Part shown: piece after piece, positions 30,080-31,719 of the stretch
Layout: each line of letters begins with the position of its first letter
Numbering within the stretch: position 1 is the first letter of the stretch
Origin: a virus
Virus genome (UHGV): UHGV-0142425
Length of the DNA stretch: 64,000 bases
Reading direction: 5' to 3' (one strand)
The notes under the pieces: generated by a model
The model's database searches: none
Told to the model about the DNA's origin: nothing
What the model saw: the letters and a program-made list of their open reading frames with translations, nothing else
Program-made: the position numbers and the translations under genes

Positions 30080-30735
30080 TTATTAACCTCATTACTGGTT
30101 GGGAAATAAGGTTGCGGTGCCGGGTGCCTCCCGGTGTCCTTTGGCTGGTTATCCACCGTAGACGGGGAAACAAGGAGAAATGAATGGACTGATATAACCA
30201 TTTCCCCGCGTGCGCTTAGCCGCATTCACCGCAACGGAAAGAGCATTCCTGGTGGACCTGTAGATTGGGATATGAACCAGTTACAGGAGAATGCTCTTAC
30301 CTGTTACGTGCTCCGTTTCGTGGAGCTAACGGCGGGTGATCGGGCCGCACCAGACTGGACTTATTTCAGCGTTATGCTCATGCCAGAGAATCAAACTGTG
30401 ATGGTCGGTGCTGAACTCCGACACAGGGTTGTAGCAAGCCCCGCAAAGCGCGCACTACTGTAGTTGCGGCACATCAGCCTGTGCATTCACCACAATGTTG
30501 AGAACACTGGTTGTCACGCTGCAACGCAACATTTATTTATTCGTAGATTGGGATATGACCCCGTTACGCCAGTGTTCTCAACGTTGTAGTGCCGGTTACG
30601 GTTCCGGCCAGGCCTCTTCCTCAACGGGGTGTTCTCCATACGGACTACCGTTTATTGGTCGTTCCTGCGGTTTATGTTGTGAAGCCAGATGCTTATCTTC
30701 TGGTTGCTTCAAAGAGCTGCACTTCCTCACAACGG

Positions 30736-30809
30736 TAAGGGTACTTCGTAGGGATTCGAACCCTCTGCCAAGCTCGGCGATCTCCGACGTCGCAAAATAC
30801 CCTTACCTG
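30736..30809 (-). other. tRNA-like element: GGTTCGAATCC T-loop and GGTAAGG/CCTTACC terminal pairing but no canonical cloverleaf
   Basis: Manual folding failed for the D and anticodon arms; possible degenerate tRNA or structured RNA. Confidence 0.3.
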
Positions 30810-30815
30810 TTGTGT

Positions 30816-30891
30816 TGGTGCCGGTTAACGGACTTGAACCGCTGGCCATTCGCTTACAAAGCGACTGCTCTACCAACTGAGCTAAACCGGC
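30816..30891 (-). tRNA. trnT: tRNA-Thr (anticodon UGU)
   Basis: Manually folded 76-nt cloverleaf, anticodon loop TTTGTAA, encoded CCA. Confidence 0.7.
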
Positions 30892-30895
30892 AATT

Positions 30896-30982
30896 TGGTG
30901 GGGAGTGATGGAGTCGAACCATCCGAGTCGCAATGACAGTAGATTTACAGTCTACCCCGCTACCCCTACGGACTAACTCCCC
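30896..30982 (-). tRNA. tRNA-Tyr (anticodon GUA), class II with long variable arm
   Basis: 87 nt; anticodon loop CTGTAAA; 3-bp D stem and long variable arm as in E. coli tRNA-Tyr. Confidence 0.65.
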
Positions 30983-30987
30983 TAAAT

Positions 30988-31064
30988 TGGCGATGGTGGG
31001 TGGATTCGAACCACCGACCGACAGCTTAGAAGGCTGCTGCTCTATCCTACTGAGCTACACCATC
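30988..31064 (-). tRNA. tRNA-Arg (anticodon UCU)
   Basis: 77 nt; anticodon loop CTTCTAA; T-loop TTCGAAT; encoded CCA. Confidence 0.7.
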
Positions 31065-31719
31065 ACTTGCCGGGTACGTCTCCGGCGAGGGCTTCCACCT
31101 CCGTATGCTTTTCGGCGCGCCGCGCCCTGGCTGCAATTCGGTAACAGGGGATGCATAACCCTGGCTTCCAGCGTGATTAGCGCCTTCAGCATGACGGGAT
31201 ATACCCGTTACAAGAAATTCTCCCAGGATGCCATTAAGCAATGGCTGTTACGCTGAATGAAAAAGGACGTAACAGGTAAGGGCACTGACCAAAAGATGGC
31301 CCCTTCTCGCTCATCTGGTTAATCGAACCAGCGCCCTTACCTTGTTATGCCTCCCCGTTCCCTAATACACAGACGGGGACACTCTGCGGTCGATTTTTTG
31401 ACGGGGGACGACTCATACCCCGTGGCGTCTGGCTTCTTAGGCCGCTACCATCATCAGATCATCGTTTGCATTTACTTTAATGGTCAGTTTCTAAACCGCC
31501 GCAAAGTCGCTAACCATGACGAAAACCCTGAAAAAAACGCCCACCCGAAGATGGGCAAACTGGAAGCTCGTAACGCACTTCGGTGTTACCACTTAGGCGC
31601 ATGGTCAACCTGGCAACTCGGTGGTTTGTCTGGGAGGACTAGGCCCAGCCATGCTTACCGCCGCGCCTGTCGCGGCTAACAGCTAAATCGCTCTATAAAT
31701 CACGATTCATTGAAGCGAT

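Follow-up and report, generated by a model that had tools for sequence, protein, structure and literature searches.

The window analyzed here is a stretch of 64,000 nucleotides of the virus genome UHGV-0142425, and our subject is the spacer of about 700 nt that separates the gene for tRNA-Thr from tciA in its ban operon. Bases 29300-31800 are 95.4% identical to positions 68614-71012 of phage P1, so that the window comes from a P1-like phage or phage-plasmid. By transferring the P1 annotation through alignment and adding the window's own calls of transfer RNA (tRNA) genes and open reading frames (ORFs), we obtained an operon that reads, on the minus strand, promoter Pban/Op72, leader and terminator, tRNA genes, spacer, tciA, tciB, tciC, tRNA-Ile2 (CAU) and ban. 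The spacer lacks a minus-strand ORF, and the longest such frame in 30100-30730, where a preliminary description of this DNA had seen no convincing one, is at most 44 aa. The stretch is the non-coding, untranslated middle of the minus-strand ban operon, composed of tandem structured-RNA units interleaved with tRNA genes, and it is part of a structured-RNA family, related to STnc100 and PasD, that is widespread, strongly supported and mostly unannotated.

Each unit consists of a hairpin with a conserved base and a hypervariable top, abbreviated HVH, followed by a core. Read 5' to 3' on the minus strand, the array runs from an HVH without a core (HVH X) through three tRNA genes to unit 1, an accessory module, unit 3, a second accessory module, unit 4 and tciA; it holds one canonical core, one STnc100-type core, one short form, four HVHs and two accessory modules. 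The repeated loop motif, the inverted repeat and the two tRNA-like elements that had been noticed earlier are all parts of the HVHs of one repeated unit, and beyond that earlier account the units run on into a conserved kissing-loop core, with STnc100 of Rfam as a divergent relative, and the family extends far past P1-like genomes. Exactly two copies of the loop motif, GTAGATTGGGATATGA(N)CC(N)GTTAC, are present in the 64 kb, at 30260-30284 and 30543-30567, with none in 100 shuffled sequences; the motif was correctly recognized, although the starts first given for it (30257 and 30544) were a few bases off. The inverted repeat does enclose the second copy, but its arms (30488-30510 and 30569-30591, 91% complementary) are 23 nt long and not 18 bp, and the first copy too sits inside a hairpin, with arms at 30236-30248 and 30289-30301.

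The two elements with shared termini are both hairpins with the arms GGTAAGGG/CCCTTACC (30734-30746/30795-30807 in element 1 and 31274-31287/31329-31342 in element 2), and AACAGGTAAGRG occurs three times in the window against an expectation of 0.35. Their T-loop-like sequences are present as described, with a canonical-looking T arm, AGGGUUCGAAUCCCU, in element 1 and CUGGUUCGAUUAACCAG in element 2. As had also been said, neither is a canonical tRNA: ARAGORN calls four tRNAs in all, none of them at 30736-30809 or 31277-31343, and the elements give no Rfam tRNA match at E<=10. Element 1 has a T arm, but its "acceptor" measures 15-21 bp and it contains one other hairpin only. The suggestion that the two are degenerate tRNAs did not hold, as both are copies of the HVH family, in which the tops are interchangeable. 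An Rfam/Infernal scan of 28900-32000 and of 13 related loci at E<=10 returned only tRNAs, a sub-threshold STnc100 match and noise (mir-1271, ALIL, tmRNA fragments and YrlA).

The HVH base has the consensus 5'-CACAAC-A-GGUAAGRGC...GCYCUUWCC-GUUGYG-3' and comprises 18 bp, with a conserved bulged A, a conserved U·U mismatch and many G·U pairs; the family as a whole was defined as 5' CRYAAC-(A)-GGUAAGRGC ... GCYCUUWCC-GUUGYG 3' around a variable top. In an alignment of bases that includes hand-picked variants, and in which part of the 3' side is fixed by the search pattern, 94.3% of cells are paired, nine pairs are changed on both sides and 83 cells are G·U. Read from the opposite strand, these G·U cells would turn into A·C mismatches; the functional strand is therefore the one given here as RNA, the minus strand of the window. 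The tops vary freely on this constant base: P7 and JL22 carry the same base with a different, non-tRNA-like top, while T-arm-like hairpins recur as tops in 4 of 42 top families against 0.05 expected, some of them with GGUUCGAAUCC T arms.

Profiles for nhmmer built from non-P1 units only match the window solely in the array stretch, and the HVH 5' base is recognized at 30311-30290, 30815-30796 and 31265-31287, with E-values from 2e-5 to 6.5e-4. The HVH of unit 1, formerly element 1 (30728-30814, minus strand), begins 2 nt past the CCA end of tRNA-Thr and forms, in both the minimum-free-energy and the centroid fold, a 21-bp stem with the bulged A, topped by a small hairpin and the T-arm-like AGGGUUCGAAUCCCU; its 5' base matches at 30815-30796 (-) with E=4e-4, and homologues of its top occur in the unrelated viral contigs L167 and L197. 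The HVH of unit 3, formerly the inverted repeat (30491-30592, minus strand), contains the second copy of the loop motif, which reads UCAUAUCCCAAUCUAC on the RNA strand, and its base is the compensated variant GUUGAGAAC/GUUCUCAAC; related tops with CAUAACCCAAUCCACG were found in L139, L152 and L155. The HVH of unit 4 (30230-30311, minus strand) contains the first copy (plus-strand coordinates 30260-30284) and matches the 5'-base profile at 30311-30290 (-) with E=2e-5. In both of these units the 3' base together with GGUGAAUGC is also recognized, at 30495-30469 (-) in unit 3 (E=8e-7) and at 30247-30221 (-) in unit 4 (E=1.1e-7). HVH X, formerly element 2 (31265-31349, entered on the minus strand), has the base GGUAAGGG/CCCUUACC and a top that holds CUGGUUCGAUUAACCAG; downstream of it comes a U-rich tract in place of a core, and its P1 counterpart reads GCACAACAGGUAAGGG...CCUUUCCUGUUGCG on the minus strand. 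Its orientation is ambiguous because the base is nearly palindromic, the 5'-base profile matching 31265-31287 on the plus strand (E=6.5e-4).

Two further features of the HVH base were observed. The 3' strand, UGCUCUUU or (U)GCUCUUU/ACC, contains what we take to be a match to the NusB/NusE-binding boxA core (GCUCUUUA) of rrn operons and lambda nut, and this string (for example at 30236-30247 and 30735-30746, both minus strand) is base-paired inside the HVH. In addition, GUUGYG (30230-30235) can pair either with CRYAAC at the 5' side of the HVH (30305-30311) or with CRCAAC at the 3' end of the core (30107-30115), and in unit 4 all three segments share a matching change (CGUAAC, GUUGCG and CGCAAC), which suggests either mutually exclusive helices, that is a switch, or repeat homogenization.

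To describe the family beyond the window, IMG/VR was scanned for the 3' flank of the hairpin and then for the P3 hairpin of the core, each scan yielding at least 120 contigs, nearly all of them non-P1; collected loci are cited here by their L-numbers. The first scan gave 84 distinct complete units with a median length of 212 nt. In its 5' part a full unit reads CACAAC-A-GGUAAGAGCAUUG, then the hypervariable segment HV1, then CAGUGCUCUUWCC-GUUGUG-GUGAAU; the 3' part reads GCGC[AGGCUGAU]GCGC, the second hypervariable segment HV2, and AA-GCCGG[AGAUCAGCA]CCGGC-C-ACCACAAC. HV1 ranges from 30 to 171 nt, with 42 unrelated families among 64 tops, and HV2 from 0 to 166 nt, with 84 families among 122. 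According to the second scan, the core (from GAAU onward) is much more widespread than the HVH.

The elements of the core follow one another in the order helix P1, GAAU, P2, the variable linker HV2, AA, P3 and P1'. P2 consists of 4 bp and an 8-nt loop, and P3, which adjoins P1', of 5 bp and a 9-nt loop. Six nucleotides of the P2 loop, GCUGAU, are the exact complement of AUCAGC in the P3 loop, an arrangement of kissing loops, and at least 5 of these 6 positions can pair in 137 of 142 cores. The sole alternative P2 loop, AGGUCGAU, occurs together with a matching P3 loop, AGUUCGACA, a double compensatory change that probably goes back to a single evolutionary event. In other hosts helix P1 is formed by unrelated yet complementary sequences of more than ten kinds, such as GGGAUUGGAU/AUCCAAUC, ACCACACAGAAGCG/CGCUUCUGUGUGGU and GAGGGGAGCGGUCU/AGACCGCUCCCC; when its partners were permuted, the mean uninterrupted helix fell from 7.5 to 3.5 bp, the maximum of 200 permutations being 4.0. 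The stem of P2 covaries as well (GCGC, GCAC/GUGC, GCGU/ACGC, GAGC/GCUC and GCCC/GGGC) around an invariant loop. The covariation analysis that the preliminary description had proposed gives a strong signal: in a 79-sequence core alignment made with HV2 removed, 90.2% of cells are paired, compared with 78.1% after shuffling and 29-48% with slid partners, double changes affect 18 of the 26 pairs, and the covariation score of 0.319 (vs 0.098) is reached by none of 500 shuffles. A 3' CCA after P1' is found in some sequences only.

We built a covariance model, R1, from 27 diverse non-P1 cores of viral contigs and ran it over the whole window with filters off; its matches lie in the array stretch on the minus strand only, everything else being noise. 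The canonical core of unit 3 (30390-30500, minus strand) scores 61 bits (E=7.1e-15) and has all the helices of the family, with P1 UUGUGGUG/CAUCACAG, AAU, P2 GCAC[AGGCUGAU]GUGC, a 45-nt variable linker and P3 GUCGG[AGUUCAGCA]CCGAC, and with a loop pairing of 5 out of 6 (GCUGAU with UUCAGC); nhmmer profiles match its P2 part (8.4e-7) and its P3 part (30422-30397 (-), 2.7e-5). The core of unit 4, of the STnc100 type (30106-30239, minus strand), ends 27 nt upstream of the tciA start codon and scores 21.8 bits on R1 (E=5.7e-4); its P1 (UUGCGGUG/CACCGCAA) and P3 (CCGGG[AGGCA]CCCGG) stems fit the model, while both loops differ. For unit 1 a short form, GUUGUGAGGAAGUGC...CCAGAAGAUAAGCAUCUGG-CUUCACAAC, at 30676-30727 (minus strand) may represent the core: this assignment is by resemblance and not significant (P3 profile E=0.076; R1 9.5 bits, E=1.6, at 30671-30737), and the same short form is also present in L166, L169, L171 and L179.

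The accessory modules, both on the minus strand, recur elsewhere. The module at 30593-30675, with hairpin GCCGGAACCGUAACCGGC and ACUACAAC at its end, shares 87% identity with intergenic DNA of Citrobacter phage phiNP and has a counterpart directly after a unit in viral contig L153. The module at 30311-30389, with hairpin GCUCCACGAAACGGAGC and a terminal ACGUAAC, also has counterparts in other phages, which directly follow tRNA genes in the Klebsiella phages Kp4882-1 (L131) and ST147-VIM1phi7.2 (L005) and precede HVHs in many viral contigs.

The earlier view of the stretch as non-coding structured RNA on the minus strand is well founded, as the hairpins and the loop motif do exist, are conserved and are not random; for the minus-strand RNA 30815-30080 the folding energy is -267 kcal/mol, with z=-5.4, compared with z=-2.7 for the plus strand (20 shuffles each). 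The plus strand carries two ORFs that had gone unmentioned, one of 109 aa at 30134-30463 (upl of P1) and one of 137 aa at 30495-30908 (plp of P1), the latter lying antisense over tRNA-Thr; the DNA of upl and plp as annotated for P1 by Lobocka et al. 2004 (NC_005856), P1 69472-70041, corresponds to about 30273-30850 of the window, plus strand. That these are real small proteins and the RNA structure incidental is an explanation we consider highly improbable. In its favor, upl is intact in 68 of 68 colinear P1-like copies, it has matches to PHROG families 7444 and 14500, and the P1 record annotates the sigma-70-like promoters P1upl and P2upl. The 68 copies represent only eight sequence variants, however, and the two PHROG families are of unknown function and have the same length as the ORF calls. 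A four-nucleotide insertion (TTTA) relative to P1 shifts the frame of plp here and truncates it at codon 41, and among the 97 P1-like copies in the collected loci plp is colinear in 30, eight of which have frameshifts or nonsense codons, and rearranged by insertions or replacements in the other 67. Outside the P1-likes the DNA under both ORFs is retained as short nucleotide modules and not as a reading frame: stops occur in frame, and gap lengths are not divisible by three. Pfam holds no family for either ORF, a promoter scan found no sigma-70-like promoter, and RefSeq/PGAP shows no coding sequence or other feature under the stretch in nearly all P1-like plasmids. Finally, phrog_34205 is matched by the 137-aa ORF only where this runs antisense to tRNA-Thr (30816-30908, plus strand); the family probably arose from spurious ORF calls over tRNA genes. 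Neither ORF behaves as a gene with homologues and coding-type conservation; these data indicate that upl and plp are not conserved coding sequences and that the conserved features belong to the RNA structure of the opposite strand.

The core family is present in phages and prophages of Alpha-, Beta- and Gammaproteobacteria. The exact 20-nt sequence GAAUGCGCAGGCUGAUGCGC occurs in at least 120 species genomes, the matches listed including Rhizobium, Methylobacterium, Burkholderia, Pandoraea, Cupriavidus, Comamonas, Thauera, Pseudomonas, Xanthomonas, Stenotrophomonas, Dyella, Halomonas and many Enterobacterales; a few more lie in metagenome-assembled genomes assigned to other phyla, assignments that are unchecked. 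Among 5426 complete E. coli genomes, 1047 have a match to an enterobacterial unit, in 875 chromosomal and 334 plasmid places, and none of the matches listed has an annotated feature under it. An exact scan of viral contigs for the 16-nt loop motif, by comparison, found P1-likes only, the other matches being AT-rich chance occurrences. A tRNA gene lies within 500 nt of 20 of 121 viral-contig units and is co-oriented with the unit in all 20, and by a noisy measure most of the nearest long ORFs share the unit's strand. In operon leaders the core closely follows Q, closely precedes N or lies downstream of an early promoter: a Q antiterminator gene lies 199 nt upstream of the unit in L370, and N-peptide genes lie 222 nt downstream in the L458 cluster. 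When the neighbors of 107 genomic copies were clustered, only Q and the N-peptide genes were informative, the ORFs in GC-rich genomes being mostly spurious. Many enterobacterial units have an intrinsic terminator just upstream and another about 100 nt past the core.

A sensitive BLAST search with 30090-30815 shows the region to be a mosaic whose modules also occur in unrelated phages: separate sub-segments match unannotated intergenic DNA of other phages at 72-94% identity, always on the strand of the flanking operon. The hosts of these sub-segments are temperate phages of Klebsiella, Cronobacter, Citrobacter and Salmonella, 9NA-like and Sasha-like phages, and SSU5-like phage-plasmids. Three sites recur: between a Q-like gene and the holin gene (ST147-VIM1phi7.2, ENT47670), in the large gap beside the repressor in the early-left operon (phiNP, 118970_sal3), and directly downstream of tRNA genes (Kp4882-1, ST147-VIM1phi7.2, Bas81). 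P1-like genomes themselves differ by whole modules. With R1, each P1-like genome examined yields between one and three cores, among them an extra one in the 196-nt insertion of JL22; a tRNA-Ser replaces one unit in D6, P7 and pEC361_3, and in D6 and P7 the core ends a few nucleotides before its 5' end, while in a 161-kb plasmid a core lies between tRNA-Thr and tRNA-Ser, and in another P1-like genome (L025) unit 4 is joined directly to tRNA-Thr. The 283 nt between the two loop-motif copies are deleted in natural recombinants among the IMG/VR P1-like contigs (L046, L051 and L018), which fuse the 5' half of the unit 3 hairpin to the 3' half of the unit 4 hairpin at the shared loop motif. The canonical core is lost with this deletion, so that some P1-like elements, at least, can do without it.

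The tRNA genes of the window, all on the minus strand, are tRNA-Arg(UCU) at 30988-31064, tRNA-Tyr(GUA) at 30896-30982 and tRNA-Thr(UGU) at 30816-30891 (ARAGORN; Rfam tRNA scores of 72.1, 43.8 and 69.0 bits, respectively), together with a CAU tRNA of the Ile2 type at 29304-29379 between tciC and ban, whereas P1 has Asn, Thr and Ile. The region of tRNA-Tyr is about 88-89% identical to tRNA regions of Enterobacter and Cronobacter phages of about 170 kb, and from these similarities very different phages appear to trade tRNA cassettes. In D6, P7, pEC361_3 and the 161-kb plasmid we observed a type-II tRNA of 85-87 nt (L009 1638-1724, L010 1641-1725, L008 1638-1724 and L007 2409-2495), which is annotated variously as tRNA-Ser, as tRNA-OTHER or, in P7, not at all, and whose best Rfam match is tRNA-Sec at 43-47 bits, just below threshold. 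In pEC361_3 a Thoeris anti-defence gene of the Tad2 family (L008 104-679) follows tRNA-Ile where the P1 record has ban, a position that fits the region being a hotspot for accessory or counter-defence cargo. The TerB-family gene tciA (29654-30079, minus strand) comes directly after the RNA array.

Upstream, the C1-controlled promoter Pban/Op72 lies at about 31718-31763 (minus strand) within the 3' end of dmt, according to the P1 annotation, and an intrinsic terminator (GCCCAUCUUCGGGUGGGC followed by U7, with an 8-bp stem; 31531-31557, minus strand) stands about 170-180 nt downstream of it. The leader RNA 31558-31720, closed by this terminator, is the annotated "dicF-like region" of P1; the Rfam scan of 28900-32000 gave no DicF match at E<=10, and weak tmRNA-model matches (25.7 bits) fall within the leader. 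Given the strength of the terminator, transcription from Pban should mostly stop as a short leader RNA unless read-through occurs. The tRNA genes, the RNA array, tciABC and ban all lie downstream of it.

The explanation that we favor as a whole, with about as much doubt as confidence, is an RNA array whose units mature into stable, trans-acting small RNAs. The helices of the core follow a cloverleaf-like order, with an acceptor-like P1, a D-arm-sized P2, a T-arm-sized P3 and a loop contact in place of the D/T elbow, and on this basis we propose that the units would be cut from the polycistronic transcript by the nucleases that mature the neighboring tRNAs (RNase P, RNase E and 3' trimming). 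Once excised, they could persist as compact, nuclease-resistant stable small RNAs that would act in trans after the model of their relatives STnc100 and PasD, both Hfq-bound small RNAs of prophages, with the conserved core as scaffold and the hypervariable HV1 and HV2 as determinants of specificity. The units are probably stable processed small RNAs. When the preliminary description spoke of small RNAs or processing signals it named the right kind of answer, while the specific function is one that we infer. Several points weigh against our proposal. Natural deletions and freely swapped tops and units imply that individual modules are dispensable. A terminator scan found no further terminator between 31531 and ban; typical Hfq small-RNA 3' ends are absent from the P1 array, so stable products would need processing. 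HV2 is weakly structured (mean z=-0.75) and has no conserved arm, the window element at 30106-30239 scores below the STnc100 gathering score of 47 and is by the Rfam criterion a relative and not a member, and the tRNA analogy would concern topology and dimensions only. The searched literature yielded no P1 data on transcripts, processing or Hfq binding for these functional steps, which are inferred. The P2 and P3 loops are near-invariant across three proteobacterial classes, a pattern that suggests recognition by a conserved host machine, and such recognition would be no less compatible with an action in cis on RNA polymerase or a ribonuclease than with regulation by base-pairing.

Such a cis role is the main rival explanation, though an unlikely one. 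The core, possibly with the boxA-like GCUCUUU of the HVH, would act as a leader element on RNA polymerase or on Rho/Nus factors, in the manner of HK022 put or rrn boxA antitermination, and would sustain elongation over about 1.6 kb of untranslated tRNA/ncRNA sequence and the terminators beyond it. The leader positions after Pban, after Q (L370) and before N-peptide genes (L458 cluster) agree with it, as do the location between a holin gene and a Q-like gene in L005 and L134 and that beside the repressor, within the early-left gap, in L003 and L006. The near-invariant loops would fit a conserved host machine, a long untranslated operon segment is a natural Rho target, and UGCUCUUU in the HVH presumably matches the boxA core. 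Against this, many prophage units sit just past a terminator and cannot act on it, several tandem copies and copies between tRNAs are unexpected for a single polymerase-loading site, and the boxA-like string is paired within the HVH and absent outside the enterobacterial versions; moreover, R1 finds nothing at putL or putR of HK022, and the published features of put differ (PMC9378689).

Rather less probable still, in our judgment, is that the units are processing punctuation or a ribozyme, substrates of RNase P or RNase III or a new self-cleaving motif whose cleavage would release tRNAs and downstream mRNA and which would have no role afterwards. Units abut tRNAs on the same strand, T-arm-like tops are enriched, the long perfect HVH stems resemble RNase III substrates, and the core, in which three helices meet at a junction of conserved nucleotides and two loops are in contact, recalls small ribozymes. 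Yet 101 of 121 units have no nearby tRNA, no known ribozyme family matched at E<=10, E. coli tRNA operons manage without such elements, and relatives accumulate as discrete small RNAs. The mosaic nature of the region, with tops swapped on a constant base (P7, JL22), tRNA-Ser standing in for a unit (D6, P7), the fusion of a unit to tRNA-Thr in L025, deletions between repeats and some T-arm-like tops, could also be read as a sign of degenerate tRNA genes or of recombination scars or linkers for module shuffling, conserved through recent horizontal transfer. We regard this as very unlikely, because drift or recent transfer does not explain compensatory changes in four helices, strand-specific G·U pairs and loops that are invariant in distant taxa, and because the elements fail tRNA models.

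A more specific version of the tRNA likeness, to which we assign a small probability, is that the core imitates tRNA, with a 6-bp loop-loop helix in place of the D/T elbow; placed by phages among their tRNA genes and matured there by the tRNA machinery, it would serve as a decoy or sponge for host defences or toxins that target tRNAs (anticodon nucleases, colicin-type tRNases or tRNA-modifying enzymes). If so, the hypervariable segment at the position of the anticodon arm would diversify in an arms race, and tRNA-Arg, -Tyr, -Thr and -Asn with the TerB/"colicin resistance" tci genes would form one counter-defence island. Whatever its role, the family probably engages a central piece of host machinery (RNase P, RNA polymerase, or Hfq/ProQ), in view of its strong conservation and its placement in early and late operon leaders and among phage tRNAs. 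P1 is a reference genome in which upl and plp appear to be annotation artefacts covering a conserved RNA array; the compact fold beneath them is, in its canonical form, undetected by Rfam 15 and unannotated in RefSeq. Its sole described relatives, STnc100 and PasD, have been regarded as Escherichia and Salmonella prophage small RNAs of unknown function. Identifying the host machine would explain a recurrent and ignored feature of temperate phages and would frame work on PasD and STnc100 structurally and evolutionarily.

Comparison with known systems separates the array from most of them. No description of the HVH, of tandem arrays or of the tRNA linkage was found in the searched literature, nor any full-text match to the conserved sequences. 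Known ribozymes, riboswitches, C4, GOLLD and ROOL gave no Rfam match at E<=10 in 28900-32000 and 13 related loci; the P2 loop contains the hammerhead-like CUGAUG, but junction lengths and the remaining core nucleotides do not fit. Integron attC-like cassette boundaries were considered for the inverted CACAAC...GUUGUG ends with swapped interiors and rejected, as the fit to RYYYAAC/GTTRRRY is loose, there is no integrase and the G·U pairs indicate RNA; ends of transposons or of miniature inverted-repeat transposable elements were dropped on the same grounds. HK022 put resembles the units in being a structured RNA of about 70-120 nt that a phage encodes, that works without a protein and that stands in leaders downstream of early promoters. 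However, put consists of two stem-loops with a triplex and begins at PL +3 (PMC9378689), whereas the units here are often downstream of terminators and in tandem, and differ in sequence and fold. A search of the whole HK022 genome (L482) with R1 gave no match at putL or putR, and homology to put was rejected; the best match, 33577-33695 (+), in the nin region between a DnaB-like gene and Q (17.1 bits, E=0.02), may be a degenerate core.

The likeness to tRNAs is closer in setting and topology. The units are embedded in phage tRNA clusters and co-oriented with them, and the core shares with tRNA a cloverleaf topology, a D-arm-sized P2 placed 3 nt past P1, a T-arm-sized P3 beside the P1' strand and a loop-loop contact. 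It differs in having no anticodon arm (HV2 being unstructured and hypervariable), no T- or D-loop consensus and no conserved CCA end; HV2 as an analogue of the anticodon arm was rejected as unsupported, given its weak structure, and degenerate tRNAs were likewise rejected, since neither ARAGORN nor the Rfam tRNA model recognized the elements. Models of tRNA, tmRNA and YrlA gave no or noise-level matches in the array (ARAGORN; Rfam E<=10). The tRNA cluster of T4 also encodes stable non-tRNA RNAs, species 1 and 2.

The closest relatives are STnc100 and PasD, which a 2026 bioRxiv preprint reports to be structurally homologous, both prophage-encoded, and abundant as Hfq-bound small RNAs, PasD in enteropathogenic E. 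coli (10.64898/2026.05.13.724894). The STnc100 consensus (RF02076) follows the same outer plan as our core, with a UGGUG...CACCA closing helix, GAAU, a first hairpin and a 3' CCGGGAGGCACCCGG leading into the closing helix. In the window the STnc100 model matches 30113-30233(-) at 37.4 bits (E=7e-6, model positions 31-147 of 206), so that the element at 30106-30239 aligns both to STnc100 and, at 21.8 bits, to R1, and P1-like relatives score 34-43 bits on the same model; canonical cores with AGGCUGAU/AGAUCAGCA loops, such as that at 30390-30500, are undetected by it. The published range of PasD is Escherichia and Shigella, whereas the core spans three proteobacterial classes, PasD having been compared by description only. 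The genomic setting is shared, too: prophage leader or moron regions near tRNAs, stx, lysis and TerB genes, with STnc100 lying 75 nt downstream of stx2 (PMC12370729) and TerB genes being conserved neighbors of PasA and PasC in lambdoid prophages (10.64898/2026.05.13.724894). A TerB neighbor is likewise found here, tciA following the array as TerB genes accompany PasA and PasC, and the combination of tRNA, structured RNA and TerB may be a transferable module.

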